From: a virus
Lineage: Duplodnaviria; Caudoviricetes
Virus record (IMG/VR): IMGVR_UViG_3300010429_001810
Location: 1,283 to 65,282 of that record
DNA length: 64,000 bases
Strand: one strand, 5' to 3'
Below, piece by piece: positions 1 through 27,738 of the stretch. Position 1 is the first letter of the stretch. Every line of letters begins with the position of its first letter. The notes beneath the pieces are model-generated. The model was not told where the DNA came from, searched no databases, and was given only the letters and a program-made list of their open reading frames with translations. A program made the position numbers and the translations under genes.

Positions 1-220
1 AAATAGATCCAATCATCGGAATCTAATTTTTTCCAGTCACAGTATTTTGAAAACTCTGGCATGTGTTCCAATAAACATGCCCAATCCCAACCATCCAATT
101 CTTCCCATGGAGCGAATTGTTCAATTTCAGCTTGATTCTCTGCTACATAATTTTCTAAATCTTTCCACGTTTCCATCATATTCTCCAGTGAAAGTCATTT
201 TTGGCTTGTGGAATAAGTGT

Positions 221-460
221 TTACCAATCTTCCCGTGTAGTATCACGGCGTTTTGCCACATCTCGGGCCGATTTCAAATCCAATGCCAATTCTTCCAATC
301 CAATTCTTAAAAACCAGTGGATGTCAGCATCATCCACCTCTTGTATCTCCGTTCCCACCACTTCTTGATCTCCAACCAAGTACCACTCTTCATCTTGGTG
401 CTTGAATGTGAAAATCATCTGAGTGATGGATTTCTCCACGGGTTGTAATGTGACGTACAT
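221..460 (-). CDS. Hypothetical early protein (79 aa)
   Basis: ORF with GGAGAG RBS followed by TC-ATG start; no recognisable motif. Confidence 0.7.
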   Translation of the reverse strand: MYVTLQPVEKSITQMIFTFKHQDEEWYLVGDQEVVGTEIQEVDDADIHWFLRIGLEELALDLKSARDVAKRRDTTREDW

Positions 461-483
461 GATTTCTCTCCAAAGTAGTAAAT

Positions 484-503
484 CCCCACTCTTACAAGTG
501 GGG
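484..503 (-). terminator. Stem-loop downstream of the 327-aa ORF
   Basis: CCCCACT-cttaca-AGTGGGG inverted repeat just after the stop; weak U tract. Confidence 0.4.
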
Positions 504-511
504 CGTGATGA

Positions 512-1495
512 TTAAGCTGCTCTAGCCGCTTTTCCAGTCTTGGGCTTGGCAACCTGAACAGTGGGTTTGACCACGAGCGGCTTGACTTCTTCCGCTTTGT
601 TGGCATCAGCTAATTTCTTTGCTTGCAGCCTTTCCAACGCGGCATTGGCCGCTAAAGCAAAGTCTTTGGTGGATGATAACGTTTTAGCAACGGTTAATCC
701 ACCTTCAGCCAGCAGTCCCGCCAGTCGTTTTTGTGACTCAATCGCGCTTTGAACAACGTCATCCACGACCACTTCTTCCATGATGGGACGTTCCAATAAT
801 TCTTCCATGGTATCGCAGTAATCCGCACACCATGCATCTCGGTCGGATACGTCACCTTCCACGGTATCCATCTTGGGCGCAGTAATTCGCAGCTTTGAAA
901 GATTGTTGCAGTAATCCACGAAGCATGGATCTTCATTAACAACTTTGACTTCCAACATCTGGGCTAGCATCTCATCATACATAGCCCACGGTTCTTCATT
1001 GGAAATCTTTACTTTTGTGGGAGCTACACCGTTCTTTACTGAACGGGAAGTACCTACCCATAGTGATTGGGTAGCCGCCATACGCCAGCTCTGTGCCCAC
1101 GCAATGAATTCTTGCGGACGCCCGGTTTTAGCAGCATCTTTTGATTGATGCCGATCCACCTTGGACTTTTTGTTAGCGTTGAATGCCAACACAAACCTGG
1201 GTGAAGTTCCGCAAGCATAACCTACGGAAACTGGATCGGCAATCGTTTGGTACTCTTCCGGGATAAATTTCCCCGTTTGAAATTCTTTCCAATTCTCCAG
1301 CATCCATGCGACAGTCTGGAAATTCCCTTGGTTGCACAACAAATGCGCAAACATATTAGCTTCCATGCTCTTATTACTGACTGACAAACCTGCGGTAGCC
1401 GTAGCACACCGCTTGAGTTCTAAGCCGGTGATTCCTTTTACCAGTTTGATCAGTTCTTCACGCTGCGCTTTCGCAGCATCGTTCGTCTTAGCCAT
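512..1495 (-). CDS. Hypothetical protein (about 327 aa) with Ala/Lys/Pro-rich C-terminal tail
   Basis: Start refined to MAKTND (GGAG RBS upstream); ends KPLVVKPTVQVAKPKTGKAARAA. Confidence 0.8.
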   Translation of the reverse strand: MAKTNDAAKAQREELIKLVKGITGLELKRCATATAGLSVSNKSMEANMFAHLLCNQGNFQTVAWMLENWKEFQTGKFIPEEYQTIADPVSVGYACGTSPRFVLAFNANKKSKVDRHQSKDAAKTGRPQEFIAWAQSWRMAATQSLWVGTSRSVKNGVAPTKVKISNEEPWAMYDEMLAQMLEVKVVNEDPCFVDYCNNLSKLRITAPKMDTVEGDVSDRDAWCADYCDTMEELLERPIMEEVVVDDVVQSAIESQKRLAGLLAEGGLTVAKTLSSTKDFALAANAALERLQAKKLADANKAEEVKPLVVKPTVQVAKPKTGKAARAA

Positions 1496-1564
1496 GCTAT
1501 ATTCTCCATTGCGTATTAAAAAGTCTAAAAAAAGCGCCAAGCGATAACTCGCTGACGCGAATGA

Positions 1565-1593
1565 AGTTTAGCACACTTGAAAAGAATGTGCAA
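1565..1593 (-). promoter_or_regulatory. Sigma70-type promoter
   Basis: Minus strand TTGCAC-17 bp-TAAACT, intergenic and upstream of the 327-aa ORF. Confidence 0.75.
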
Positions 1594-1600
1594 GTATTTT

Positions 1601-1768
1601 TCAAAATTCTGGCAGTTGGATTACGTCCAGCACCTCATCAGCCCAAGTGGCTGCTCTCAATACTTGATGTTTAGCGTCCATCTCATCAAGTGCCATCAGC
1701 ATTAAATTGATTTCCGTTCCATGAAAATCATCTTCGATCACGTATACCACCACGACGTATTCTTTCAT
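1601..1768 (-). CDS. Small hypothetical protein (55 aa)
   Basis: GGAG RBS and TC-ATG start at MKEYVVV. Confidence 0.65.
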   Translation of the reverse strand: MKEYVVVVYVIEDDFHGTEINLMLMALDEMDAKHQVLRAATWADEVLDVIQLPEF

Positions 1769-1816
1769 GACAATTCTCCATAAAATGCGCAGCACACCAT
1801 GCGCTGGCGCGTTTGC

Positions 1817-1845
1817 AGCATATCATGCTGCGGAAGATTTTGCAA
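1817..1845 (-). promoter_or_regulatory. Sigma70-type promoter
   Basis: Minus strand TTGCAA-17 bp-TATGCT. Confidence 0.6.
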
Positions 1846-1853
1846 CTATTCCG

Positions 1854-2063
1854 TTAAGAGTGTTGCAAATTATTTGCAGAACTGAATGCACGATCTCCAC
1901 GTTTATCCCAACATGACGGATAAACAATCTGCTGTTTACGACTCTCATAAAGTGCCGAACCGTCTAAAAACAGTACCAAAGTGACATCAGGCGCCAGTAT
2001 AATCTGAACGCCTAAATCTTCGTATCCGAATAGTACGTATTTTTCTGCCATGCTACCGTTCAT
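1854..2063 (-). CDS. Small hypothetical protein
   Basis: ORF coupled to the upstream gene by an ATGA overlap. Confidence 0.5.
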   Translation of the reverse strand: MNGSMAEKYVLFGYEDLGVQIILAPDVTLVLFLDGSALYESRKQQIVYPSCWDKRGDRAFSSANNLQHS

Positions 2064-2248
2064 TTCAGTTTCTCCAGTTCAACAATCTTAACAAGCCAAC
2101 TTCCGTTCATTAAAGAAACGGATTGGACTCTGGTTTTGTTACAGTATCGATCTGTAACAAATTTCATGATTTCTTCAATGTTCATGTCACCCCCCACCTG
2201 TTCCAACAGTATGGGGATGGAACTCTCCCATTGAATAAAAATCTTCAT
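2060..2248 (-). CDS. Small hypothetical protein
   Basis: GGAG RBS and TC-ATG at MKIF; alternative internal start MNIEE. Confidence 0.55.
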   Translation of the reverse strand: MKIFIQWESSIPILLEQVGGDMNIEEIMKFVTDRYCNKTRVQSVSLMNGSWLVKIVELEKLK

Positions 2249-2267
2249 GAAAAACATCTCCGTAAAA

Positions 2268-2310
2268 TGGGTACATTGGAATAATGATCTTGATTATTCC
2301 AATGTACCCA
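2268..2310. other. Perfect 18-bp inverted repeat (intergenic hairpin)
   Basis: TGGGTACATTGGAATAAT-7 nt-ATTATTCCAATGTACCCA. Confidence 0.85.
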
Positions 2311-2334
2311 CTCCATTAAGAGTGGGTGGTGGTT

Positions 2335-2610
2335 TTAAATTAGACCGCTGAATTTCTTATTAAACCATCCAAGAATCTTCATTGGATGGTCAGTCTTGAA
2401 AATTTTTTCATCGAAGTCCCACACGATGAACGTCTTGGTGTCAGCATCCATGCAAATCTCATACGGACCGACAGACAACGACCACCAGCCATCGTCATCT
2501 TCACTTTCCCACAAATCTGTGTCAAAGTTATCTTCGTGAAGCATTGTTTGCAACGCTTCTAGCATGGTGCGCTCATCTAGCATTCGGTAAGCATTGGATG
2601 GATTTTTCAT
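2335..2610 (-). CDS. Hypothetical protein (91 aa, acidic)
   Basis: ORF with GAGGG RBS and TC-ATG start. Confidence 0.7.
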   Translation of the reverse strand: MKNPSNAYRMLDERTMLEALQTMLHEDNFDTDLWESEDDDGWWSLSVGPYEICMDADTKTFIVWDFDEKIFKTDHPMKILGWFNKKFSGLI

Positions 2611-2613
2611 GAC

Positions 2614-2811
2614 TTAGCCCTCGACAATTTCAGTTTCGCAAGCATTCCAATCTTCCAACACTAACCGGAATTGGTCTTCGGAATGCCGTTGACGAATCGT
2701 TTTCAGCAAAGCCTTTGCTCTTTCACGGGTAATGGGTCGAACAGATTGGAAATCAGTCCAATGTTCGGATTCTTTGATCTGAATGATCGCATTACTGATA
2801 TTTTTAAGCAT
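2614..2811 (-). CDS. Hypothetical protein (65 aa)
   Basis: ORF with GGAGAG RBS, tightly packed. Confidence 0.7.
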   Translation of the reverse strand: MLKNISNAIIQIKESEHWTDFQSVRPITRERAKALLKTIRQRHSEDQFRLVLEDWNACETEIVEG

Positions 2812-3035
2812 TATAGTCTCTCCACGACGATTTTAATCGTCTCAGTACCGTTGTAACATTCGAAACCTTCACGCACACTTCCTTGTATGCTGTAGCCTTT
2901 TTGCTGCAATAGTCCACGCAGCTCTTTCAAAAACTGCACCATCCGGGTGCCATCTTTGACATCGGTTAGTCTTTTGCCTTGCCGTAACACATCTACGGCA
3001 TACGAATTTCTGGGTAAAATACCTGTTAAGTTCAT
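2811..3035 (-). CDS. Hypothetical protein (74 aa)
   Basis: Start refined to MNLTG (GGAG RBS, TC-ATG). Confidence 0.65.
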   Translation of the reverse strand: MNLTGILPRNSYAVDVLRQGKRLTDVKDGTRMVQFLKELRGLLQQKGYSIQGSVREGFECYNGTETIKIVVERL

Positions 3036-3037
3036 GA

Positions 3038-3145
3038 TTATTTCTCCGTAAGTTCTTTCACAGTCATGGGGCGGGCTAATAAAAGCCCATCTACGAATAA
3101 CCACGCCAGTGTTAAAGCTCTGGCGTAAGCTTGTTCTTTACTCAT
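3038..3145 (-). CDS. Small protein (35 aa), not in the ORF track
   Basis: GGAGAATTGAAC-ATG; MSKEQAYARALTLAWLFVDGLLLARPMTVKELTEK; stop 2 nt before the next start. Confidence 0.55.
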   Translation of the reverse strand: MSKEQAYARALTLAWLFVDGLLLARPMTVKELTEK

Positions 3146-3169
3146 GTTCAATTCTCCGTGAGTAAGTTC

Positions 3170-3445
3170 TCAATCGTCAAGTATGGCGAAGCGAGCCACA
3201 AATCCCGCATTGGCTTTTTCAGCGTTCTGGAAAATGTGTAAAGGAATGAAATAGCAGTTGATGTTACTCGCTGCTAAATCTTTGAACGTTCTTTGATCTG
3301 AACGATCCCAATACTTACGTTCGACTTCATAATCGATTTCTCCAGTGTGGAAATTGTAAACGATGTAGCCGTTTACCTTTTGCGCATTTTCTTGCGCAAT
3401 ATCTCCAAAACATTCATTAGTTTGATACATACATAATTCTCCCAA
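3170..3445 (-). CDS. Hypothetical protein
   Basis: ORF in the early array; true start probably MYQTNE after the GGGAG RBS. Confidence 0.65.
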   Translation of the reverse strand: MGELCMYQTNECFGDIAQENAQKVNGYIVYNFHTGEIDYEVERKYWDRSDQRTFKDLAASNINCYFIPLHIFQNAEKANAGFVARFAILDD

Positions 3446-3448
3446 AAG

Positions 3449-3589
3449 TTAAAAGTCTGAACAAATACGCCAAGCATAACTAGCTTGGCGCAACCCATTG
3501 TAAATCCATTTAAAAGAGTTTGCAAACATTATTTTCATGACATCTGAAAACAAATCCACCAAATTCATAGACATAGTTTTCAACGCCAT
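3449..3589 (-). CDS. Small hypothetical protein (46 aa)
   Basis: GGGAG RBS before MALKT; fills the gap between neighbours. Confidence 0.4.
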   Translation of the reverse strand: MALKTMSMNLVDLFSDVMKIMFANSFKWIYNGLRQASYAWRICSDF

Positions 3590-3609
3590 GTTAACGTCTG
3601 CTCCCAAAT

Positions 3610-3885
3610 TCAGAAGCCCGTCACATGCTCCCAAGCACAAAGATCGTCTTTTTCCCGTTTGGCAGTCCGCAAAGTAACACCTTGTTCCAAGGTCTCAATT
3701 TCGTGGTTAAATCTTTCAAATTCGGTTTCTTCATCCGAACAGTAATCCAGAGCGTTATACACTCTTTCATGCTTGTTCCAACAAAGATCAATTCCGTGTT
3801 GAATTTGATCTTCATCAACGACTACGAAGAACTGACGCAGCTCTAAACTGCACGAATTCTTGAAACGAATGACAAATTGTTTCAT
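3610..3885 (-). CDS. Hypothetical protein (91 aa)
   Basis: GGAG RBS and TC-ATG start. Confidence 0.7.
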   Translation of the reverse strand: MKQFVIRFKNSCSLELRQFFVVVDEDQIQHGIDLCWNKHERVYNALDYCSDEETEFERFNHEIETLEQGVTLRTAKREKDDLCAWEHVTGF

Positions 3886-3959
3886 GATTTAAACTCCAAT
3901 GTGCGGTAGAGTGTTCACACACTCTCTTAAAAGACAAAATCACCTGAAATCGCCGGTTG

Positions 3960-4001
3960 AAAAAACGGTAGAAATAACAGTTGTTATTCACTACCGTTTT
4001 T
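3960..4001 (-). terminator. Intrinsic terminator after the 749-aa ORF
   Basis: AAAAACGGTAG...CTACCGTTTTT stem with inner AATAAC/GTTATT; A/T runs on both sides. Confidence 0.8.
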
Positions 4002-4017
4002 GTTTCATATGAAACAA
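4000..4017. promoter_or_regulatory. parS-like/operator palindrome, copy 1
   Basis: TTGTTTCATATGAAACAA; the same motif recurs six times at 13.1-15.2 kb. Confidence 0.7.
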
Positions 4018-4018
4018 A

Positions 4019-6268
4019 TTACTTCAAACCCGCCCATGTTTGATTGCGAACCTCTCCATCGAAAAACATCTTGCGGAATAGTACGGGTTTCCGATAAGCT
4101 GACAATATCTGCTTAATATCGGAAGTATCCATCCCACAATCTTCCACTAGTTGCCGTGCTTTTTGCAACCGATTTAACTCTTCCCTGTTGATACATCTTG
4201 CAAGCACAGTCACATCTGCCGGGAACAAATGTTCACGAATGTTTAACCATGGCGAATCTCCATCCATGTATACCGACTCTATCGACAAATCGTTCAACCG
4301 GATCATGTAACTCTTTAGCATCCGGTCACGATCATCTTTCGACAATTCCAAACTACCCGTAGCAAAACCCCGATTATCTTCCAACACATCCCGCATCTTG
4401 TCAACAATCGGAGCGATCTCAGCATGAAACTCTGGATCGTCAATTCCCGCTTCATTAATCTTTCGTAATCCCGCAACGGATTCTTTCCGTTGTCCATTCA
4501 ACTCTTTACCACGGAACAACTCTTCACCCGCAAATTCTGGGAAGTTGAAGTCCAATGCGGTAAACAGCTTTTCCATTTTTCCAGCGTCAATGATCTTGGA
4601 ACGACCGTTACCGCACACTTCACCAATGAATTCTCCATCAGCGAATTCCGCTTCAAATCCAGCAACCACACGCTCTGGTGAACAAGTGATTTCCAACCAT
4701 AGCGTACTTTCCGTCAGTACACAAGATCGTGCACCGTTGACCGTACATGATTTGTCCCCGTTCCGAATCTTACCGGACTTGGACTTGTACATCTTACCCA
4801 CATTCTTCGAAGCATTCCGAGCCAATTCCCGATTGGCGTTCTTCGTCGAAGCCACCCATGATTTAGCCAGCATCTTCCGTGCCGCTTCCAAGTACGTCAT
4901 ACCCGACTCTTGATCGTAAACATTATCGTAGTAATCGGAAACGTCATTGTCTCCAACTAAATTCTCCACGGAATTGTTCCGTTTACCACCGAGCAGTTTG
5001 CGAATCTGATCATCCAAATTCCACTGGATGTATCTCTCGCAGTTCTGCTGTTGCCGCATCGCATCCAAATGCGGAACAAAAATCTTCGGAGCCAAACCAT
5101 TCTTGTTCAGCCGTGACGCACTAACACCTGCCATGGCGTTGATTGCCAACTTCCGACAATCTTTGTTCGGAAATTTCCAAGCGTAGTATGATTCCAACGG
5201 ATTTGGACAATCTGCCATCCAAGCTTCCAGTACGGAAAAGTCTCCAGCTTCCGCACAGTATGCCGAAAGTTCTCCATGGCATGAATTCCATGCGGACAAA
5301 TTGACCGCTTCACCTCCCACGTTGATCCACCCATCTGAACACCTACATTGCCGATGACGGACATGGTCTACCAATCCGACCATGAACACTTCACGGCTCT
5401 GCTTCCCACTTGCCATGTTGCCGTTGCCCGCATTCTTCGAACCCGATTCTTGGGCTTGGGATTCCGAACTACCCATCGGAATTGAAATCACCTTAAGTGA
5501 TTCAAACTCCTCTTTTAACATGATCCCACACTCGATGGAATTCTCCAGCGGTTCATGCACCAACACTTCTCGACCGTCAATCTCAATGCTTGGATGTTTC
5601 GCCACCTCGACGGGCCGCAATGAAATCACAGTCTGCCCGTATTGCCGGCTGGACGACATAAACGTGGGCTTGTTCTTTTCATTCAAGCCACCATCGAAAA
5701 TCTTGACAGTGCCAGCGGATTGACTACCACGGGGATTCTTCAACTGTGCATCCCAATCCGAACCGAACTTCTCAGTCATGGCAACATCGAACGCACTCTT
5801 TACCCGGCGTTCAGTGACTACAGCACCAGCACCCATCGGAGTTGTGGAAATACGGTCAATCACTTTTTCATCTTCGAAAAACTGACCGTCGATTTCAACA
5901 ATCTCTTTCACAGTTTCTTGCCAGTGATATTCGGCACCACTTCCTGAAACCGTGGTGTGGACAGCACAATCGACTTCCATATCTTCGGTATCCATCCGTC
6001 TGACAAGCTCCAGTTTGAAACACGCTTCCTGCATGGATAATTCTTCCCGGTGATTCACCGGATCAAACTGTGAGCCACCCATCTTAATCCACTCCATCAA
6101 GTCAGCTCTGGACAAGCTGCTGCGGTATGCAATTAAATCGCTGGCATCTAAGCCACCGAAATTCAAATTCTCCACAGCACTCCATACTGCCGATACCACG
6201 GCGGTATCTGCACAGTGTACTTCCAGCCGGAGCTTCATCTCCAGCAAACGTTGGTCAATGTGATTCAT
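4019..6268 (-). CDS. Large orphan protein (749 aa)
   Basis: Long ORF with GGAG RBS and TC-ATG; no motif recognised. Confidence 0.9.
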   Translation of the reverse strand: MNHIDQRLLEMKLRLEVHCADTAVVSAVWSAVENLNFGGLDASDLIAYRSSLSRADLMEWIKMGGSQFDPVNHREELSMQEACFKLELVRRMDTEDMEVDCAVHTTVSGSGAEYHWQETVKEIVEIDGQFFEDEKVIDRISTTPMGAGAVVTERRVKSAFDVAMTEKFGSDWDAQLKNPRGSQSAGTVKIFDGGLNEKNKPTFMSSSRQYGQTVISLRPVEVAKHPSIEIDGREVLVHEPLENSIECGIMLKEEFESLKVISIPMGSSESQAQESGSKNAGNGNMASGKQSREVFMVGLVDHVRHRQCRCSDGWINVGGEAVNLSAWNSCHGELSAYCAEAGDFSVLEAWMADCPNPLESYYAWKFPNKDCRKLAINAMAGVSASRLNKNGLAPKIFVPHLDAMRQQQNCERYIQWNLDDQIRKLLGGKRNNSVENLVGDNDVSDYYDNVYDQESGMTYLEAARKMLAKSWVASTKNANRELARNASKNVGKMYKSKSGKIRNGDKSCTVNGARSCVLTESTLWLEITCSPERVVAGFEAEFADGEFIGEVCGNGRSKIIDAGKMEKLFTALDFNFPEFAGEELFRGKELNGQRKESVAGLRKINEAGIDDPEFHAEIAPIVDKMRDVLEDNRGFATGSLELSKDDRDRMLKSYMIRLNDLSIESVYMDGDSPWLNIREHLFPADVTVLARCINREELNRLQKARQLVEDCGMDTSDIKQILSAYRKPVLFRKMFFDGEVRNQTWAGLK

Positions 6269-6528
6269 GACTAATTCTCCGTAGTTGAACCAAAGTTCTT
6301 GCCAAATCCACCATCAAAACGGAATTTGGCAAGTGTAGTTTACCACAATTACTCAGATATTGCTATCGAATCTGGGTAAAGTGAACGAGTGTTCGTTTCC
6401 AGTCTTCATCGAAACTGCGGACTGGAACGTTGAAAAGTTGAAAGATGAAGAACCCGATGGTTCCCAAAGCAAAAGATGCTTGGGAATTTCTGGTAGTACA
6501 AAACAGCACAACCATTCCAGGAAGTGTT

Positions 6529-6801
6529 TCATTCTTCCGTCACATAAAAATATCTGTGGTCGGGATACTGATTGAACATGAATTCATCAGCCAGAAAGTA
6601 CGCAGTTTGGAAAAACACCTGACAAGCATCGGGGTCAAAATACTCGAATGTCTGTTCGATGACAAACGAATTATCTGATAGTTTCAGCACCAAACTGTCG
6701 TCATCGAAGACATGCATTTCTCGAATATCGGAATATTCGAGTTTCATTTGAGATTCGACTGTCATCTCAGCGAGTGACAAACAAATGTTTTTCTTACTCA
6801 T
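6529..6801 (-). CDS. Hypothetical protein (90 aa)
   Basis: GGAGA RBS and TC-ATG start. Confidence 0.7.
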   Translation of the reverse strand: MSKKNICLSLAEMTVESQMKLEYSDIREMHVFDDDSLVLKLSDNSFVIEQTFEYFDPDACQVFFQTAYFLADEFMFNQYPDHRYFYVTEE

Positions 6802-6950
6802 GATTAATTTCTCCGGTTGTCAAACAATCTGGTCAAAGTGACCATTGAAAAATGATGCTGACGCATCCATGATAAACCCGATTTGCAGAGTTTTCAATGC
6901 ATTTCGATTGAATTTCTGCGGGTGGGATTCAAAACCCGATTCAAAATCGT

Positions 6951-7058
6951 CTGGAAACCCGTCAAAAATGTTTGACAAGCCATGAAATCCAGAAAGTGGT
7001 ATCCAAGTACCACTTTGAGAGGAACGTGGCTAAAATCGTCTCGTTGACGGGTTTCCAG
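6951..7058 (-). ncRNA. Candidate structured 5' leader or ncRNA
   Basis: 15-bp perfect outer stem (6951-6965 with 7044-7058) enclosing a 9-bp hairpin (6993-7016), downstream of the promoter at 7251-7279. Confidence 0.35.
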
Positions 7059-7250
7059 GGGTGTTGAGTTTCGATTGAGAGATCCATTTCATCTTATTCA
7101 TCATTGGATGAAGAGTTGTTCAAATTTCTGGATCGGAATTTTTGAAAATGAACGTGAGAAATTTGAGTAAAAATTCAAAATCAGGATAAAATTCTTGAAT
7201 AATAATTTCTGGATAAAGTGAACAAGTACTCCCTCCCGGTCGGTGAATCC

Positions 7251-7279
7251 AGTTTAGCATATTTTTTCAAGAGTGTCAA
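7251..7279 (-). promoter_or_regulatory. Sigma70-type promoter
   Basis: Minus strand TTGACA-17 bp-TGcTAAACT (extended -10). Confidence 0.8.
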
Positions 7280-7718
7280 GCTTTTTAATTCAATCATTAA
7301 GAGTTTCATATTACGTAATTACGGTATAACTCTTCATGATTGAATTTTGAAGTATGGAGAGCTGGAATGGAATCTTCGATATAACTCTTTCAAATTTCAA
7401 TCTCAGTATGGAGAGTTTGCAACGCCGACTCTGCTTCTGCTCCCAAATAAGAAACATGGAAAGTGAATTTCTGGTGATACAGTATGCAGATAGTGGGTCG
7501 AAATAAGTAATATCTCGTCAAGTTTCTGTGACGGTGCTGGACTCTTTAGTATGTTAATCGTGATCTGTTAATGCAGATAGTGTATAATCAAGTTGACAAA
7601 ATTTCTGGAAATCCCGGTGCCACAACTTTAAATTCTCTGAACTCTGCCAAAAACTGGAAATTATTATTTTTGTGACAGTACTCGATCTGCTTACGATCAA
7701 CAAAGTGTATAATGACAC

Positions 7719-7747
7719 TTGACAAATGGCTTTACACATGTTATAAT
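7719..7747 (+). promoter_or_regulatory. Consensus sigma70 promoter for the HNH gene
   Basis: TTGACA-17 bp-TATAAT with extended -10 TG, 30 bp upstream of the ATG. Confidence 0.9.
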
Positions 7748-7776
7748 ATGCTTTTAATTAATCAGAGTAAGATGTT

Positions 7777-8388
7777 ATGAAAAAATTGTCGTTGGAAGAG
7801 CGTTGGCTTGCAAGAGTTGCTGAACCTTCGGATGATAACTCTTGTTGGTTGTGGAAAGGAAGTATATCAAGTCAAGGATACGGAAAGTTGCGAGTGGAAG
7901 GTAAGGACTTGTTAGCACATCAGATCGGGTGGAAACTTGCAGGTAATGACTCTTCGCCAAAAGGATCTGCACTTCGGAATCAATGTGGTAATGTACTCTG
8001 TGTGAATCCACAACATTGGAAAATTTTACCATTGCACCTTAACCTGGGAACAGCGCGTGTTGCTGTGAGATCAAGAACAAAAGAGCAACGGATGGAAGAT
8101 TTCGCTAACAAGATCAATGAAAATGGATCTTTGATTTTGGATACACCTTGTTGGGAATGGATGGGAACAAAGAATCCAAATGGATATGGATTGTTTAGTT
8201 CCAGATATTTTTCTGGAGCAGCACACAGAGCTTCATGGGAAATCTTTGTTGGGCCGATTCCAGATGGGCTTTTTATCTGTCATAAGTGTGATAACAAGTC
8301 TTGTGTAAATCCCGAACATTTGTTCTTGGGTACACAGTATGACAATATGCAAGATAAGGCACAAAAAGATCGGTTAGCAAAGATCTAA
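7777..8388 (+). CDS. HNH homing endonuclease with tandem HNH units
   Basis: CWLWKG..GYG..AHQIGW..CGNVLCVNPQH, then CWEWMG..GYG..AHRASW..CHKCDNKSCVNPEHLFLGT..NMQD. Confidence 0.9.
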   Translation: MKKLSLEERWLARVAEPSDDNSCWLWKGSISSQGYGKLRVEGKDLLAHQIGWKLAGNDSSPKGSALRNQCGNVLCVNPQHWKILPLHLNLGTARVAVRSRTKEQRMEDFANKINENGSLILDTPCWEWMGTKNPNGYGLFSSRYFSGAAHRASWEIFVGPIPDGLFICHKCDNKSCVNPEHLFLGTQYDNMQDKAQKDRLAKI

Positions 8389-8404
8389 CTTCTACCCCAT
8401 AGTC

Positions 8405-8456
8405 AATTCAGCATGAAGGTATTACATAAACCACGTATTACCTTCATGCTTGAATT
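8405..8456. terminator. Bidirectional terminator between convergent genes
   Basis: AGCATGAAGGTATTAC...GTATTACCTTCATGCT long stem with one mismatch. Confidence 0.7.
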
Positions 8457-8463
8457 TGGTCAT

Positions 8464-8937
8464 TCAACTCTCCAGTATCGTGGGGTTGCTAAAAGATTTA
8501 CACCAATCCACATAAGGTGTAGTTCCCATTTCTTCCCGCATGATCTTCTTCCAAATCCGTCCATGTTGCATCTGGGACTGATACTTCTTTAACACTGTCA
8601 TGGCGTTCGCAGTCGTCATCTGCATCATGCCCCGCTGGAAGTGAAGGAAGTGGGCCATCTCATGACATGCTGTATTCGCTACAGACATCAAGATCTCATC
8701 CTGGGTCCACCCGTCACACATCTTTAAAACATCATTGGGATAGATCGTGATGATGCTCTCCGTGTGCAGATCACCATAAAGTCTCCAGTAGAAGAGTCCA
8801 GCGATGTTATCTTCGGGCCACAGCGGTTCAGTGATCTTTAAGCTATGTTTCTTAAAGATTGTTTTGTCAATCAGATCGGACTGAATGATCTTGTTACAGC
8901 ACATCTTGAAGTGCTTGAATACCAGATTCGCTTTCAT
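8464..8937 (-). CDS. SprT-like zinc metalloprotease, paralog 1
   Basis: ACHEMAH (HExxH) plus downstream HGRIWKKIM. Confidence 0.7.
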   Translation of the reverse strand: MKANLVFKHFKMCCNKIIQSDLIDKTIFKKHSLKITEPLWPEDNIAGLFYWRLYGDLHTESIITIYPNDVLKMCDGWTQDEILMSVANTACHEMAHFLHFQRGMMQMTTANAMTVLKKYQSQMQHGRIWKKIMREEMGTTPYVDWCKSFSNPTILES

Positions 8938-10019
8938 GACAAACTCTCCGTATTAGTTTGCAACCAGTAGATCGGGAACCCATTCTTCTTGAACTTCTTG
9001 ACCAAGTGCTGATCTTGTTTGTCCAAGTAATTGGGATCTCCATACACCACCATCGCACATGGGGAAGAGTTTCTAACGAAACCTTCAGTGTAGATTGTGG
9101 AAATGTATGTAAGCCGTCTTTCAATGGAATAACTCTCGTATGCAGCTCTGGCACCCGTCCATCCTTCCCAGTACTTTACATACGTTTTCTCCACATCCAA
9201 CTCACCAGTCTGCTCGTTGTAATACGAGTAGCAGTCTTGCTGGTAAATTCTTCGGAGTTCCGATTGTGCTTGATCTATCACTAGACCAATCATTACTGGA
9301 CATTCTTCTTGGAAGTACTTGTACCGAGCTAACAGACTTCCCATTTCCATGGGAAAGCACTCTGCTGCCAACTCTCGGTGGGATTGAGTTTCAAACTGGA
9401 AGAGCTTCCTGGCAATCTTCCGTGTGTAATTCTTTTCATCCCCCCATAAGAACTGGTCGGGTTCCGAGTTGAACCCAAAGAGCTTACTATTCTCTTCGTA
9501 TGGTGCTGTACCATACAAACCTAGCCACCGTACACATAGCATTCCATCCAGACTGGCATGGGAGTGTAAAACATCCCATCCAGATTCTTGGATAGTTTTC
9601 TGAACAAGTCTGGGTAATTCCCATGTACCAGGTATTACTGTCAACCAACCCTCATGGATTTTATCTTCCTTGAATATCGCATCTTCTGAGTAATCATCTT
9701 GAATACGATACAATCCATACTCATCTTCACCATCCAAGTAGATTGAATTTCCGTAATCATCTTTGCATACCAAAGCTTGAGAAAACCAATCTACATCCAC
9801 TTTGGGTTCTGGTGCAGTCAATGGAAATTCCACACCGTCTTCATCAGTAACGTACACTAAATCTCCGTAGTCATTCATGACCAGTATCGGAGAGTTATTT
9901 ACATACTGATAACCAGAGCGCAATCCTGGTTTGTAAGGATTGCTGCGTTCCACCTGATTCCATTGCCGACGAATCAGTTTTGAGGTGTGGCATCCCCATA
10001 AATCTTTACCATCCACCAT
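8934..10019 (-). CDS. Hypothetical protein (about 361 aa)
   Basis: Long ORF; probable start MVDGK coupled (TGATG) to an 18-aa upstream ORF; ATGA overlap with the downstream gene. Confidence 0.8.
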   Translation of the reverse strand: MVDGKDLWGCHTSKLIRRQWNQVERSNPYKPGLRSGYQYVNNSPILVMNDYGDLVYVTDEDGVEFPLTAPEPKVDVDWFSQALVCKDDYGNSIYLDGEDEYGLYRIQDDYSEDAIFKEDKIHEGWLTVIPGTWELPRLVQKTIQESGWDVLHSHASLDGMLCVRWLGLYGTAPYEENSKLFGFNSEPDQFLWGDEKNYTRKIARKLFQFETQSHRELAAECFPMEMGSLLARYKYFQEECPVMIGLVIDQAQSELRRIYQQDCYSYYNEQTGELDVEKTYVKYWEGWTGARAAYESYSIERRLTYISTIYTEGFVRNSSPCAMVVYGDPNYLDKQDQHLVKKFKKNGFPIYWLQTNTESLS

Positions 10020-10075
10020 CACCCGAACATCTTTGGGTTGGATGAATGGATAGAATCTTCGAAATAGTTCTTCAT
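10019..10075 (-). CDS. 18-aa leader or remnant ORF, MKNYFEDSIHSSNPKMFG
   Basis: AGGAGAG RBS and TC-ATG; its TGA overlaps the next ATG. Confidence 0.45.
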   Translation of the reverse strand: MKNYFEDSIHSSNPKMFG

Positions 10076-10090
10076 GATCAACTCTCCTGA

Positions 10091-10597
10091 TCAGTAATAT
10101 CGTGATAAGATTTTGGGAACCTTTGTCGAGTAACACCAGGATGTATCATCTGGTGCACCCATCTCAGTCCGCATAATTTTTCTCCATGATGCATGATGAC
10201 CGCCTTCCGTGTCACTTCTGAGTACATCATAGCAGTGATCATATAGATCCTGCAAGGTGACATCAACAACACCTTGATCCCATACTCTTTTGTGGTCGTG
10301 GACAAAGCGCATAAACCAGATGGCATGTGCCATCTCATGACATGCGGTAATTGCTACCCCAAGCAGAATTTCATCCTTCGTCCAGCCTTCACTCGCTGCG
10401 ATGACATTTTCCGGGAAGATCGTAATAATACTTTCCGTACTCAGATCATGATTGATCTTGTAGTAATGGACAGCGACGGCGTCCTCTCGATTTTCATCGG
10501 GTGGTAAAATTTCCAGAGTATGTTGACCTTCGGGCCAATCCACTCTTCTCTGGATCATTTTACAATGACCGCTAAAGCCTCTGAATATGTTCTTCAT
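10091..10597 (-). CDS. SprT-like zinc metalloprotease, paralog 2
   Basis: ACHEMAH plus HHASWRKIM; shares ESIITI(Y/F)P, WT.DEIL and IMR.EMG with paralog 1. Confidence 0.7.
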   Translation of the reverse strand: MKNIFRGFSGHCKMIQRRVDWPEGQHTLEILPPDENREDAVAVHYYKINHDLSTESIITIFPENVIAASEGWTKDEILLGVAITACHEMAHAIWFMRFVHDHKRVWDQGVVDVTLQDLYDHCYDVLRSDTEGGHHASWRKIMRTEMGAPDDTSWCYSTKVPKILSRYY

Positions 10598-10744
10598 GAT
10601 CAACTCTCCAAGTTTAAACATCTGGGGGTGTATCGATCTACATACCGGGGGTCAAGATCGAATATGTTTCTTTCACGCACGATAATCTACACTCCGTCCC
10701 ATGCGTGATTTGAGACGGGGTGTGTGGCCGCTGGCTAAGCCATC

Positions 10745-10773
10745 AGTATAACACCGATAGCGAGAGTTTGCAA
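10745..10773 (-). promoter_or_regulatory. Sigma70-type promoter
   Basis: Minus strand TTGCAA-17 bp-TATACT. Confidence 0.75.
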
Positions 10774-10863
10774 GCACTATTTTCGCTGTGCTCAGAGCGT
10801 TTGGGTTCTTGTCCATAGCGTTCTTACAACGCTTACTCTGCATCTACTCCCAAATCTTGGTGA

Positions 10864-11850
10864 TTAAAACTGCCCAAGTTCTCCAAGTTCGATTTCTGTC
10901 CGTACATTATACAAAGTAGCGAACCTTGCATTTTGGACATTGCCATAATCATCCATGAACCATCTTTCACAGTGTCCATCTGAACGATACTGTAACCAAA
11001 ATAAGCGTCCGTCAATTCGCAGTAGATTCCAGTAATACTGGAATTCTGGAACAGCCACTTGTTCGATGTAGTGCATGGCACCGTTGATCTCACATGGCGC
11101 ACCATGGGTAGTCTTTTCAATCATCACATCCAAGTACAGACCAGCTTCAATCTGCTGTCCTAGTTCTCGAAAGCGGGGAACATCTTCCCAATCTTCGATA
11201 CCATCATCCATGCTCATGGGAACCAGCAAGCATTCCCAAAGAGTTCCCATGGGTTTCTTTTGATCAAGCGGAATAAAACCCCATCCACATTCATCCAGGT
11301 ACGGAATGTACCAGTTTCCATTGTGGTAAGGCACCATGTAATGCGTCCAAGCCGGAAACAATGGTTCTACACAACTGTTGTGATACTCCATTTCTTCCAG
11401 TGCTGCGATCAACTTACTGGACTCAGGTCCGTAAGCTTCGCTGAACGTCTTTCCAAATGTCACGCAACGAGCCGTGACATTCTTTCCATTGTGGCGATAA
11501 GCCACAACAAATCCGTTGGCTGCGTAGAATTCACCCGCCACCTCATTGGCCCATTCACCTGTCATGCAAGACGGACAGTTCTCATCCGCGTAAATTTCCT
11601 CGATCTTTTCACGGCTATACGCGAACTTTACCTCGGGCACATATTCTGCAGCATACAGAGCGGCTAACCCATCCTGGATGGCCCCATCCAGCATTTTTAA
11701 CATATCGGCGGCCTTATAGTCAGGCCGCGACAACAGTATCTCTCGGCGTAAAATCTTACCGGGCTTCATGCCTCGTAGCATGGATTCCTCGATGCGTGGG
11801 ATGTTCAAACCCCAGGTGTCGGCAAAGCTAACAAAGGTCTTGGTAAACAT
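10864..11850 (-). CDS. Phage hypothetical protein (about 328 aa) with SCM and PYLD motifs
   Basis: CPSCMT...ARC...YIPYLD resembles a recurring uncharacterised phage family (from memory); start refined to MFTKT. Confidence 0.75.
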   Translation of the reverse strand: MFTKTFVSFADTWGLNIPRIEESMLRGMKPGKILRREILLSRPDYKAADMLKMLDGAIQDGLAALYAAEYVPEVKFAYSREKIEEIYADENCPSCMTGEWANEVAGEFYAANGFVVAYRHNGKNVTARCVTFGKTFSEAYGPESSKLIAALEEMEYHNSCVEPLFPAWTHYMVPYHNGNWYIPYLDECGWGFIPLDQKKPMGTLWECLLVPMSMDDGIEDWEDVPRFRELGQQIEAGLYLDVMIEKTTHGAPCEINGAMHYIEQVAVPEFQYYWNLLRIDGRLFWLQYRSDGHCERWFMDDYGNVQNARFATLYNVRTEIELGELGQF

Positions 11851-11881
11851 CTTAATTCCCCATGTGTTGTGAATTGTAATC

Positions 11882-12415
11882 TTATACGTGGTAATAAAAG
11901 TCTCCATCGTCCAGCATCCAATGCGGATCACGACAGAGCCGTGAGTACACCTTTTGACGTTGAGGATCTGCGCTCCGCACCATGAAACGCCAGTAAGGAG
12001 TGGTATTGGGAGACTGTTTGATCTGGTCGATCACAGCATAGATCTGCCGTTTCAACCACAGTAGTCGGGACATGCCCTGTTTACGGGTTTCCAGTGTATC
12101 AATACTCTTCCGTGCTTGACGCACGGCACGGACATCATCTGCCCGAATGTGAGCAAATCCACTGAAGACCGCATAGCATTTTGTGTCAGATTCGGTCCAC
12201 CATTCAATTCCGAGGACGTAGTCCTCTTGGCGGATGCAAGTAAAACCTACATTGCCTTGTCCCAGTGGACGATAGTATTGAGGTGAATATTTCATGCTCA
12301 TCTCCGGCGTCAATATGACGCGCATAGTCTTGAAGTGGGAAATCCATTTCATTAGATGGGGGTCGTTACTCTGAACTGGCCCTGGTCGTGTGCGAAGAAC
12401 GATTGCTCTAAGCAC
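11882..12415 (-). CDS. Hypothetical protein
   Basis: First ORF after the 12.5-kb promoter; start uncertain. Confidence 0.65.
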   Translation of the reverse strand: MLRAIVLRTRPGPVQSNDPHLMKWISHFKTMRVILTPEMSMKYSPQYYRPLGQGNVGFTCIRQEDYVLGIEWWTESDTKCYAVFSGFAHIRADDVRAVRQARKSIDTLETRKQGMSRLLWLKRQIYAVIDQIKQSPNTTPYWRFMVRSADPQRQKVYSRLCRDPHWMLDDGDFYYHV

Positions 12416-12481
12416 ACCTTAATCACGGAAAAATGTTTGAAAAATCAAGCACTTACCCGTGAACCCCGGCGGGGTACGTAT

Positions 12482-12510
12482 AGTATACACACATTGATCA
12501 AGGGTGTCAA
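12482..12510 (-). promoter_or_regulatory. Strong sigma70 promoter heading the leftward arm
   Basis: Minus strand TTGACA-17 bp-TGnTATACT. Confidence 0.85.
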
Positions 12511-12646
12511 GTCCCCAGTGAAAATAATTCAGAGCGATGCAGAGGTTTTGGGCCATCTGATCATGAGATGTAGATCAGACATGATCAGAGTGAGAGTACT
12601 TTCGAATCAGAGTAGATAGTGGACCTCCAATCGTAGATGGCAAGAT

Positions 12647-12731
12647 GTAGTGGGAAGGTGGGAGATGTCAGGTGGGTAGTGGGAAGGTGGGAGATGTCAG
12701 GTGGGTAGAGGGAAGGGTTGAGAGTCAGGTT
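12647..12731 (+). repeat. G-rich 29-bp tandem repeat (2 exact copies and 1 degenerate)
   Basis: GTAGTGGGAAGGTGGGAGATGTCAGGTGG at 12647 and 12676; degenerate copy at 12705. Confidence 0.9.
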
Positions 12732-12875
12732 ACAGGTGGAAATATAAGGGAGTCGTACCAGATGCCCCTCTTAACCTACAGTATACTCTAACGCCTCATG
12801 TCTGGTTTGACCGCCCCTGCCCATGGACGGCGCGGGGCGGCGCAATTTGCGTGCCAGCGTCGCGTGTCCATTGCG

Positions 12876-13007
12876 TGTTACGTAACATGGGGAGTACGGT
12901 ATGCACACACCATGCCAAACCATTGACTGTATAACACATGTTACGTAACAGTATGATGACAGCACAACCCCATGCCGTGTGACATGTCAAACATGTGTTA
13001 CGTAACA
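12876..13007. repeat. Three copies of the palindrome TGTTACGTAACA
   Basis: Exact copies at 12876, 12939 and 12996; partial TGTTACGT at 13090 and 13137. Confidence 0.9.
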
Positions 13008-13143
13008 CTGCTGTACAGTATGCAGTGTCGCAATCAGTTGACATGCAGTATAAGCTATACATGCACTCACCTGATACATGGTGGGTGTCTGTTACGTCAG
13101 CACAATGCTACAGTCATGAAAATGCGACTGTCACAATGTTACG

Positions 13144-13198
13144 TTGTTTCACATGAAACAAAACTATAGCAGTATTGGTTTTGTTTCACATGAAACAA
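13144..13198. promoter_or_regulatory. parS-like/operator palindromes, copies 2 and 3
   Basis: TTGTTTCACATGAAACAA at 13144 and 13181; one mismatch to canonical parS TGTTTCACGTGAAACA. Confidence 0.75.
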
Positions 13199-13231
13199 AA
13201 AAGCCCTGCCACAATTAAGTGACAGGGCTTT
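13197..13231 (-). terminator. Intrinsic terminator for the 81-aa ORF
   Basis: 13-bp stem with one G-U pair on the minus-strand RNA, followed by U6. Confidence 0.8.
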
Positions 13232-13234
13232 GTT

Positions 13235-13480
13235 TTACTTCTTGTGATACAAGGAATTAACTCGATTGTCTATAAAGTTGAATTCCCTTGTAGGATGATA
13301 TTCAATGGTTACACTTGTGTTGCTTACTATAACGGTTGAACCATTGTTGATACAACGTTTATCGGATAGTATCAATAATCGGATAGCTTCTATAAAATGC
13401 ATAGAATCGCAACCGTACACTTCTAACGTATTCAAGATTGCGTTATGCATTTGCGCTTTTTTCATTTGAAGCTTGTTCAT
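13235..13480 (-). CDS. Hypothetical protein (81 aa)
   Basis: AAGGAG RBS; followed by a terminator. Confidence 0.65.
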   Translation of the reverse strand: MNKLQMKKAQMHNAILNTLEVYGCDSMHFIEAIRLLILSDKRCINNGSTVIVSNTSVTIEYHPTREFNFIDNRVNSLYHKK

Positions 13481-13573
13481 TGTATCAACTCCTTCAAGGT
13501 TTGGGGTTTTGACAGCAACATGTTTGCTACTGTCAGGTAAGCAAGGGTTAACGCCCTAGCAATTGCTTGTGTA

Positions 13574-13723
13574 TCATTCATGGTGCGCTTTCCTGTATAC
13601 ATGGCTTTGTCTATGCCATGTATTGTCTTGAATGTTCCGCCCATCGAACTCGACGGGATGAATGTAATGACTTAATACGCCGATATATACGGCGATTAAG
13701 ATAAAGATTAAACAGGTAAACAT
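13574..13723 (-). CDS. Small putative membrane protein (49 aa), not in the ORF track
   Basis: GGAGA RBS and TC-ATG; hydrophobic N-terminus MFTCLIFILIAVYIGVLS. Confidence 0.5.
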   Translation of the reverse strand: MFTCLIFILIAVYIGVLSHYIHPVEFDGRNIQDNTWHRQSHVYRKAHHE

Positions 13724-13743
13724 GACATTTCTCCAGATTGTGA

Positions 13744-13860
13744 CAGTGTATTAAATCGGGTACACTGGCTAACCCGCCTAATCCTGTATCGTTAGGTTGA
13801 CAGGCGGATTAGGCTACCTGTCAACCTGTTGAGACTGTCACTGATTCAGTGCAGTCTCAA
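13744..13860 (-). ncRNA. Candidate pseudoknot or structured intergenic RNA
   Basis: Interleaved stems 13776-84 with 13806-14 (9 bp) and 13794-804 with 13817-27 (11 bp), flanked by two hairpins. Confidence 0.4.
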
Positions 13861-13978
13861 TTTGTTGTGCCCTGTTAGCAAATTTACTGATATGATTGCT
13901 GCTTATGTCAATCGCATTATACAGGAACATACCGATTAGAGAAATAACCAAAATGTTGCGAAGTGTAGAAGCGTTCAT
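13838..13978 (-). CDS. Small putative membrane protein (46 aa)
   Basis: GGAG RBS and TC-ATG at MNAST; hydrophobic ILVISLIGMFLY. Confidence 0.55.
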   Translation of the reverse strand: MNASTLRNILVISLIGMFLYNAIDISSNHISKFANRAQQIETALNQ

Positions 13979-14014
13979 GATCGTACTCCAATGTTTCAGT
14001 TTTGTTGGGTTGCT

Positions 14015-14032
14015 TTGTTTCATATGAAACAA
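14015..14032. promoter_or_regulatory. parS-like/operator palindrome, copy 4
   Basis: TTGTTTCATATGAAACAA. Confidence 0.7.
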
Positions 14033-14069
14033 AGCTTTTGGTTAATGGGGCATCCATGCCCCATGTATG

Positions 14070-14651
14070 TTACGCTTTCTTAGCGGCTGGCTTGCTGGCG
14101 GCTGGCTTGCTGGCGGCTGGCTTGGAATATTTTTCCAAGATTGCTGCAATACTTAGGGAAGTATTCTCAAACGCTACCCTGTTATTGCCTTGCTTAGCAG
14201 CTTCAAGGTTTAACACTTCCTTTGCTCCTGCTTGACGCGCTTTTGCGTTTGACTGTGCGCTTACCATGCTCGCTGCAAGTCTACCTTCAACGCTACCTAA
14301 CGCGCTATCCTGACGGGGGCGTGCAAATGACATGCCCGCCTTAATCGCCGTCTCGTCAATGCCACGTAACGCTACATGCGCATTTTTGGTTAAACCATGC
14401 GTTAAAGCATAGTCAAATTGCGCCATCACGAAGTTATGCGTCCGCCCTTTAGTACCATCACCTGCTAAAGGTACACAAAAATAAGCGAGCGGATTTGTCA
14501 TGGTAGACTGGACTGTGCCGTTAGCATGTAGCGTGTATCTTTTGCCTAACAATCCAGTCCAGTATGCAGCTACATCGCTAGCGCATGTTGAAGCTTTAAC
14601 CGCATCGTTTAAACGAGCGATTGCGTTATTAAGATTGGTTTGGTTAGTCAT
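14070..14651 (-). CDS. Hypothetical protein (193 aa) with KPAAS histone-H1-like tail
   Basis: Start refined to MTNQT (AAGGT RBS, TC-ATG); ends KPAASKPAASKPAAKKA (15-bp repeats). Confidence 0.8.
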   Translation of the reverse strand: MTNQTNLNNAIARLNDAVKASTCASDVAAYWTGLLGKRYTLHANGTVQSTMTNPLAYFCVPLAGDGTKGRTHNFVMAQFDYALTHGLTKNAHVALRGIDETAIKAGMSFARPRQDSALGSVEGRLAASMVSAQSNAKARQAGAKEVLNLEAAKQGNNRVAFENTSLSIAAILEKYSKPAASKPAASKPAAKKA

Positions 14652-14781
14652 GATTCTTACCTTTTGTTTGCAGCCTTGCGGAATGCTTGGCTTGCGATTG
14701 GAATGATGCACAGCAAATGCCAAGTTTCAAAACTATTTTGTAAGTTGCTGATTCCAAAACAATTTTATTTTTAAAGTTCTT

Positions 14782-15167
14782 TTGTTTCATGCGAAACAAG
14801 CATACGTAATATGAATTACGTTTTATTACGTAATTCAAAACGGGTCAAAATGAATCACAAGTAGTTCAAAATGAACTTTTGCAGTTCAAAATGGACCGTC
14901 AATCCATGGTGACACTACGCAAGTGCTTGTTTATAAAATAAAATTCACAAAACATAGGCGAAGCCCTTGGAGACTACTCTTAACCTATACAACGAAGATA
15001 ACGCCAGTTTTTCAAATTAAGTAAAAATTGTTTCATACGAAACAAACTACCACATCTCTTTCCATACCCCAAAGATAACACCAATACTATGCTGCATACG
15101 AAACAAACTACAATCCTAAAATTGAACTTCTGTGGCTTGTCCTATTGCGTTGTTTCACATGAAACAA
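14782..15167. promoter_or_regulatory. parS-like/operator palindromes, copies 5-7, plus one half-site
   Basis: TTGTTTC-ATGC-GAAACAA at 14782, TTGTTTC-ATAC-GAAACAA at 15028, TTGTTTC-ACAT-GAAACAA at 15150; CATACGAAACAAACTAC at about 15095. Confidence 0.7.
14835..14893 (+). repeat. Helically phased TCAAAA repeats
   Basis: TCAAAA at 14835, 14845, 14866 and 14886; AGTTCAAAATG exact twice. Confidence 0.7.
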
Positions 15168-22838: not shown

Positions 22839-22892
22839 CAGTCCATGCGCGATCTTTACATCGCGCATTTTTATTGCTATGAGGTTTTAAAC

Positions 22893-27737: not shown

Positions 27738-27738
27738 C

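Follow-up and report, generated by a model that had tools for sequence, protein, structure and literature searches.

Why does a phage carry, in the early part of its genome, seven copies of a palindrome that closely resembles parS, the chromosomal site of the segregation protein ParB? The question is raised by a 64,000-nt stretch of DNA (the window), which comprises bases 1283-65282 of the 65,282-bp IMG/VR record IMGVR_UViG_3300010429_001810 (G000), linear in that database, and is a fragment of an uncultured long-tailed phage. An earlier note on this DNA took the palindromes mainly as sites at which host ParB and SMC are loaded onto the phage genome, or at which ParB is titrated, and offered as an alternative a phage operator that happens to look like parS. 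Comparison with relatives leaves the ParB explanation unsupported, as only one of 43 scored sites has the canonical ACGT centre and sister clades carry palindromes unlike parS, and it favours the alternative: judged from the sequences, the palindrome is on balance probably the operator of a dimeric DNA-binding protein encoded by the phage lineage, which would control the early leftward arm of the genome.

The window consists of a leftward arm (positions 1 to 14651) with many small genes of no known family, an 830-bp non-coding divergent region and a rightward arm of 48 kb. The exact pattern TTGTTTC-N4-GAAACAA (TTGTTTCNNNNGAAACAA) occurs seven times, at 4000, 13144, 13181, 14015, 14782, 15028 and 15150, compared with 0.00 expected from 100 dinucleotide-preserving shuffles. 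This recount returned the same seven copies as the earlier note, and a half-site reported near 15095 was found at 15095-15106 (CATACGAAACAA). All copies lie between 4000 and 15167, in the early leftward and divergent region, and their absence from the rightward arm was borne out; nor are there further ones anywhere in the 65,282-bp record, its first 1,282 bases, which precede the window, included. Allowing one mismatch in the 16-mer core added a single match in the window, at 20224, which by its look is due to chance. The palindrome has the general form TTGTTTCA-YR-TGAAACAA (18 bp), and its centres in the window are CACATG (three times), CATATG (twice), CATGCG and CATACG. All seven copies are intergenic: this had been said of six, correctly, but the copy at 14015, which had been set apart, is no exception, since the 64-aa open reading frame (ORF) that runs over it (13838-14032) arises when a 46-aa gene is mechanically prolonged to an upstream TTG; this gene in fact begins at 13978, with an ATG that has a GGAG in front of it, and in relatives the corresponding site likewise falls outside the called genes.

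The placement of the copies follows the boundaries of transcription units. Read leftward, the pair at 13144 and 13181 stands immediately downstream of a terminator hairpin (13231-13200); the site at 14012-14035 lies between the stop of P0001 (14070), the first gene of the leftward arm, with its hairpin at 14063-14046, and the start of the 46-aa gene; and on the transcribed strand the copy at 4000 directly precedes a strong hairpin with a U-tract (~3995-3959). These hairpins are strong, rich in G+C and separate from the palindromes, and are likely to be the terminators. The palindrome itself is not an intrinsic terminator, having a 7-bp stem with two G-C pairs, and a terminator-like score was reached only by the 14012-14035 copy, on the non-transcribed strand. 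The remaining copies are found in the divergent region. The one at 14782-14799 is 131 bp upstream of the P0001 ATG and overlaps the -35 of a predicted leftward promoter (ATGAAA 14790-14785, 17-nt spacer, TAAAAT 14767-14762), and the one at 15150 is ~255 bp upstream of a predicted rightward sigma-70-like promoter (TTGACA 15421, 18-nt spacer, TAAACT).

Syntenic relatives with 55-90% protein identity were collected from IMG/VR and metagenome assemblies. The same 18-mer is carried by all those that we term type I (L048/G001, L063/G002, L083, L250-L255, L258, L259, L392, L397 and L398), and the positions of the sites are kept in L048/G001, L063, L083, L250-L255 and L392, with L258 and L259 having the promoter-array sites only. 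Four positions are kept: a pair exactly 37 bp apart directly after the terminator that ends a small-gene operon (window 13144/13181), its spacing retained in L048, L063, L250, L252 and L253; one site just past the P0001 stop codon (window 14015), with extended arms of differing flanks in L048, L250, L253 and, in a sister clade with another palindrome, L385; several sites in the divergent region, among tandem leftward promoters; and one site directly past the stop of a gene for 749 aa (window 4000), with syntenic counterparts at 3026 in L083, 34922 in G001 and 2935 in L392. In the window and seven relatives 43 matches were scored, 41 of them in the array and two, chance-like, in the window's rightward arm. 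Positions 2-6 of the half-site are essentially invariant, and the centre varies: ATAT 14, ACAT 12, GTAT 6, ATGT 5, ATAC 2, ATGC 1 and ACGT 1. Such a variable and often asymmetric centre fits a spacer that is not contacted between two half-sites that would be. In a scan of IMG/VR, the ATAT variant was found outside the phage family only as single, apparently chance copies.

What separated the operator and ParB readings was the comparison with sister clades. One of these, L384-L389, was reached through homologues of P0002, a helix-turn-helix (HTH) protein of the rightward arm, and is present in many assemblies; in this clade the homologue of P0002, P0037, which one contig of 131 kb encodes, shares 66% identity, that of P0001 31%. 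There are no TTGTTTCA..TGAAACAA sites in this clade. In their place, L385 carries TGTTCTATATAGAACA-type (type II) palindromes, seven against 0.3 expected, at syntenic places. Two of them, spaced at 37 bp, stand left of the small genes (6453/6490); the P0001-like gene has one past its stop codon (6884) and one upstream of its start (7732); and two more sit at the right-hand end of the tandem promoter array (8247/8285). The 37-bp spacing is thus found with a different palindrome, throughout L384-L388. The L391 clade (P0036) has yet another palindrome, TTGCTTCACGTCAAGCAA (type III), four bases from the same promoter box. Three site types therefore stand at syntenic positions in four clades, the half-site changing symmetrically and the architecture staying constant, which a dimeric protein encoded by each lineage and co-evolving with its site can account for, as far as sequences allow this to be judged. 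A difference of just two bases in each half-site is enough for ParB and Noc to tell their sites apart (PMC7383237). Because two changes per half-site switch specificity in the ParB family, TGTTCTATATAGAACA and TTGCTTCACGTCAAGCAA are not plausible targets of a canonical ParB, and because chromosomal parS is nearly universal, host ParB would not easily be the common reader of all three site types. A profile search of IMG/VR for P0002 homologues brought up two more distant phages, without informative palindromes.

In every clade the palindrome forms part of a composite promoter-like unit directed toward P0001, consisting of the palindrome, 2-11 nt, TTTGAAAAGTTGGCGTTAGG, 8 nt and TATRGR, which is repeated one to three times in the type I clades; its part TTTGAAAAGTTGGCGTTAGG-N8-TATRGR was seen in the window (14984-15016 and 15061-15084), L048, L063, L250, L253, L258, L259, L385 and L391. 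The distance of 20 nt from TTGAAA to TATRGR is unlike sigma-70 spacing, and the unit may be read by another factor. The intact unit of the window is followed by a conserved leader, CTCCAAGGGCTTCGCC..TTTGTGAATT (CTCCAAGrGCTwCGCC...TTTGTGAATT), and the leader after the proximal unit can form a small hairpin with compensatory changes between clades. In the transcript predicted for the decayed unit, the palindrome at 15028 would lie at ~+9 to +26. When metagenomes were scanned with the promoter box, close relatives were the only matches apart from three that are due to chance. The number of TTTGAAAAGTTGGCGTTAGG-N8-TATRGR copies ranges from one to many across the phages, and in L385 the promoter-like units form 45-bp tandem repeats.

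Table 1. Palindromes, predicted promoter units and candidate binding proteins in the window
Feature	Position	Strand	Remarks
Palindrome TTGTTTCATATGAAACAA	4000..4017	.	One base past the stop (4019-4021) of the 749-aa leftward gene
Pair of identical TTGTTTCACATGAAACAA	13144 + 13181 (13144..13198)	.	37 bp apart
Palindrome TTGTTTCATATGAAACAA, arms extended to 10 bp (GCTTTGTTTC/GAAACAAAGC)	14012..14035	.	
P0001, 193 aa	14070..14651	-	Opens the leftward arm; has palindromes on both sides in every clade
Palindrome TTGTTTCATGCGAAACAA (14782-14799)	14762..14799	-	Overlaps the -35 of a predicted sigma-70-like leftward promoter
Predicted promoter unit 1 (intact)	14984..15045	-	Palindrome 15045-15028, 11 nt, box TTTGAAAAACTGGCGTTATC 15016-14997, TATAGG 14989-14984
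Predicted promoter unit 2 (decayed)	15061..15106	-	Half-palindrome TTGTTTCGTATG 15106-15095, box TTGGTGTTATC 15084-15074, TATGGA 15066-15061
Outermost palindrome TTGTTTCACATGAAACAA	15150..15167	.	Right edge of the leftward promoter array
P0002, 162 aa	17661..18149	+	HTH_17/HTH_23; phrog_4745

We propose that a dimer encoded by the phage lineage would bind these sites both at operon boundaries and inside the control region. In the divergent region they interleave with or bracket the predicted tandem leftward promoters, one of them overlapping the putative -35 nearest P0001, and the outlying sites stand past the P0001 stop, as the 37-bp pair past the next terminator, and past the 749-aa gene. 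Once bound, the dimer would silence early leftward transcription or stand in its way as a roadblock, and so partition the transcription of the arm, possibly with cooperative binding or looping between sites. On this view the likeness to parS would simply follow from a half-site that is short and T/A-rich, and in the type I clades incidental or even functional binding of host ParB is possible.

The explanation that has to be weighed most carefully is that host ParB-CTP nucleates on the type I sites as degenerate versions of parS, with SMC recruitment, positioning of phage DNA, silencing of early genes by spreading, or titration of ParB from the host origin as consequences. We consider this unlikely, even though the resemblance is real: like chromosomal parS, the element is a perfect palindrome of 16-18 bp with the half-site TGTTTCA and several clustered copies, and genuine chromosomal arrays (L256, L257) have its T and A flanks too. 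The window sites match parS (TGTTNCACGTGNAACA) at 13-15 of 16 positions, the one, two or three mismatches to TGTTTCACGTGAAACA given by the earlier note being correct for the centres found, and three of them hold one perfect TGTTTCAC half. The G and the A by which parS can be told from the Noc site (PMC7383237) are retained in them, and ParB of P. aeruginosa binds GTTTCAC half-sites and parS-like sites with two substitutions (PMC10419367). More than 120 bacterial genomes of diverse kinds contain one copy of the ACAT variant, and chromosomes do have canonical parS in tightly spaced arrays, including pairs at 37 bp in one Clostridia and one Desulfovibrionaceae metagenome-assembled genome. As a signature of ParB, however, the 37-bp spacing was rejected, as adjacent parS sites at 120 bacterial loci are spaced 22-55 bp apart with a mode of 39. 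That the phage has no ParB of its own, as the earlier note supposed, was upheld for the available DNA (the record is ~44% complete): PF02195 and PF17762 (ParB_N and HTH_ParB) had no match in G000, G001 or G002, the control genomes being detected, and PF02195 had none in four fragments besides G000 and G001, G003-G005 among them. For ParA, Pfam scans of the tested ORFs showed no such family, no dedicated search having been made. The missing ParB suits a phage that would use the host's protein, and it is also a difference from the chromosomal system. The canonical ACGT is indeed never kept in the window (seven of seven sites), and the central CG is absent from 42 of the 43 scored sites. Restriction avoidance does not clearly explain this, as there is no clear genome-wide avoidance of CACGTG (0 against 2.6 expected), ACGT occurs 143 times against 195 expected, and the observed/expected ratio of CpG is 0.97. 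Unlike parS, moreover, the sites are linked to predicted promoters and to terminators and not freely placed, and they are not constant across lineages, with TGTTCTATATAGAACA in L384-L389 and TTGCTTCACGTCAAGCAA in L391 at syntenic positions, a misfit with a nearly universal parS. We found no report in the literature of a lytic phage with chromosomal-type parS arrays. A related and rather improbable version holds that the sites are parS mimics, through which a lytic-type phage without its own ParB would load host ParB-CTP clamps on the DNA that is expressed first by means of a weakened, CG-avoiding parS; spreading could then time the shut-off of early genes, or the genome could be tethered, and the sister clades could have switched to another binder.

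Two further explanations would move the palindromes away from transcriptional control, and both seem to us quite improbable. They could be sites of a replication initiator (for example P0002 or P0003, which precede the primase), with the divergent region as origin and the outliers as accessory sites. This region is non-coding, rich in repeats (CATTTTGAAC-type, which recur in L250, and ATTACGTAAT) and lies between divergent operons, as an origin might; yet four of the seven copies are 0.8-11 kb away at operon boundaries, the palindromes of the L384 clade merely flank the promoter array, and neither an AT-rich unwinding element nor an initiator family was identified. Alternatively, the palindromes could form stem-loops in early RNA, or cruciforms, and so stabilise 3' ends, mark processing sites or be recognised by an antiterminator that binds RNA or by a translational regulator. 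Four of the seven sites adjoin intrinsic-terminator hairpins, complementarity of the arms is preserved through the changes between clades, the site after the P0001 stop has arms of 10-13 bp with flanks that covary in the window, L048, L250 and L385, and degenerate sites in L258 and L259 keep a U-G pair in the transcribed version. Within a genome, however, the stem is invariant and the loop variable, the reverse of protein-bound RNA hairpins such as lambda boxB; several degenerate copies break the pairing (TTGTTTGATATGAAACAA, TTGTTTCACATCAAACAA); the 7-bp A/U-rich stem is weak, six of the seven window sites having little or no complementarity outside the 18-mer; and the outermost site at 15150 may not be transcribed.

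Several observations weigh against the operator reading that we prefer. A half-site that stays identical across phages diverged to ~55% protein identity is unusually stable for a phage operator, and behind terminators in L079, a contig unrelated to these phages, there are two identical 18-mers, for which a shared host factor is the easier account; both points fit host ParB. The sole canonical parS among the relatives, TTGTTTCACGTGAAACAA at 2728 in L250, lies within the 37-bp pair. Symmetric changes of the half-site also keep the hairpin potential and so leave a dimeric protein site and an RNA or cruciform element unseparated. A generic promoter scan gave hits no commoner than in shuffles and the promoters are predictions; because of this, the promoter argument rests on the conservation of the composite unit. 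As for the binder, P0001 found nothing above the helical-bundle background in Pfam, PHROGs, Foldseek PDB, VIA-align wide or the ESM Atlas, the structure model of P0002 is poor (predicted local distance difference test, pLDDT, 54), and the HTH of P0002 is near-invariant across clades with different palindromes, one putative recognition-helix residue differing.

If the palindrome is an operator, P0001 and P0002 are the candidates for its binder. No protein in the window other than P0002 is recognisable as DNA-binding, and the residue that varies in its HTH is D or Q with type I, T with type II and H with type III sites; this pattern is equally compatible with the protein reading the palindrome or the conserved promoter box. 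P0001 is confidently modelled as an all-alpha fold (pLDDT 86.6) with a disordered, basic C-terminal tail rich in Lys, Pro and Ala (KPAAS/KKA). Its homologues are metagenomic only (22 clusters), with no relative in sequence or structure outside this phage family. We slightly favour P0001 over P0002, because here a variable protein goes with a variable site: the low identity of its homologue in L384-L389, the clade with the changed palindrome, means that P0001 diverges in step with the site.

Known systems offer partial parallels. In plasmid RK2 (KorB and its OB sites) and phage N15 (SopB and its centromere sites), a ParB-family protein from the same replicon acts on one short palindrome that is spread over several kb, with some copies at promoters and others intergenic and far off, much as in the window; by analogy, the scattered palindrome suggests one protein coordinating several transcription units. 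Unlike those replicons, the phage described here has no detectable ParB N-terminal or HTH_ParB domain in the available DNA. The classical phage operator array is that of lambda, OL/OR with CI and Cro. It shares with the present one several palindromes in a divergent early control region, the fixed spacing of neighbours, and half-sites that are specific to a lineage and differ between related phages, as immunity types do. In contrast to lambda, copies are also found here at operon ends by terminators, up to 11 kb off, no CI/Cro-type repressor or lysogeny module was recognised, and the predicted promoters have an unusual conserved box (TTGGCGTTAGG, 8 nt, TATRGR).

Should the operator reading be true, the element would be of an ordinary kind, and the comparison would provide a regulatory map for an unstudied family of phages, encountered again and again in metagenome assemblies: operators of three 'immunity types' and, conserved among these phages, a promoter box and a site pair at 37 bp. 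P0001 and P0002 would in that case be candidate proteins with a new specificity for DNA. Binding of host ParB, if true, would be a new way for phages to exploit the chromosome-segregation machinery. On a practical matter, a match to parS at 14-15 of 16 positions in seven copies is insufficient to infer the use of ParB.

Completeness was estimated by CheckV at ~44% for G000, which has a GC content of 39%, and at 68% for its relative G001 (88.8 kb), both being fragments. The rightward arm encodes HNH, QueD, QueE, P0002, a primase, an SbcC-like protein, a dUTPase, a ribonucleotide reductase, terminase, portal and capsid proteins and a protein of 4889 aa. No cultured relative was found by megablast of 12-18 kb against phage records, and tblastn with the ribonucleotide reductase and portal proteins gave only distant matches (identity <=38%), with no close cultured relative among them. 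In the search for a host, the portal protein had no relatives in the bacterial genomes searched and none of the bacterial contigs with the ACAT variant was phage-related. Searches for tRNAs and Rfam families had no matches, and no relative was found that prolongs the genome beyond its right end. Among the ORFs scanned against Pfam there were no lysogeny or plasmid-maintenance genes; in the additional 28 kb of G001, the Pfam scan detected Rha, Bro-N, SNase, DenV-like, RebB and Cas_VVA1548 domains, and no repressor, integrase or partition protein.

Further repeats are found close to the palindromes. On the minus strand, the long leader upstream of P0001 contains three or four direct repeats CATTTTGAAC/TTTTGA (14841-14896) followed by ATTACGTAAT palindromes (14805-14834); the CATTTTGAAC repeats, which L250 shares, may be iterons or sites of another protein. 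Just left of the 37-bp pair, an inverted repeat TGTGAC-A-GTCRCA (13105-13135) has equivalents in L250, L253 and L063 with compensatory changes between relatives (TGGGAC-A-GTCCCA in L253). The stretch 12811-13010 holds a GC-rich hairpin with GGGGCGGCG and then three TGTTACGTAACA palindromes, and its GC motif ACGGACGGGCACGGGGCGGCGCAA is kept in the distant L385 clade (6250-6300), which supports a functional element. The contig L079 is distantly T5-like, its capsid being ~34% identical to that of T5-like phages, and has a 110-bp intergenic module twice (10494-10620 and 11805-11930), in the order terminator, TTGTTTCACATGAAACAA, a 45-bp palindrome (TGTAATACTTTTGTTT...AAACAAAAGTATTACA) and a third inverted repeat.

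Two observations concern individual genes. The early arm encodes a 101-aa protein of the Cas_VVA1548 family (putative CRISPR-associated), at 836-1138 of G000, left of the window, and at 28812-29117 of G001; its closest bacterial match, and the sole such hit, is in Suttonella ornithocola (51% identity). The ribonucleotide reductase (22845-25967, 1040 aa) and the terminase large subunit (27658-31410, 1250 aa) are far above the usual length, and their homologues in relatives bear Intein_splicing, LAGLIDADG_3 and NUMOD3, i.e. intein or homing-endonuclease domains.

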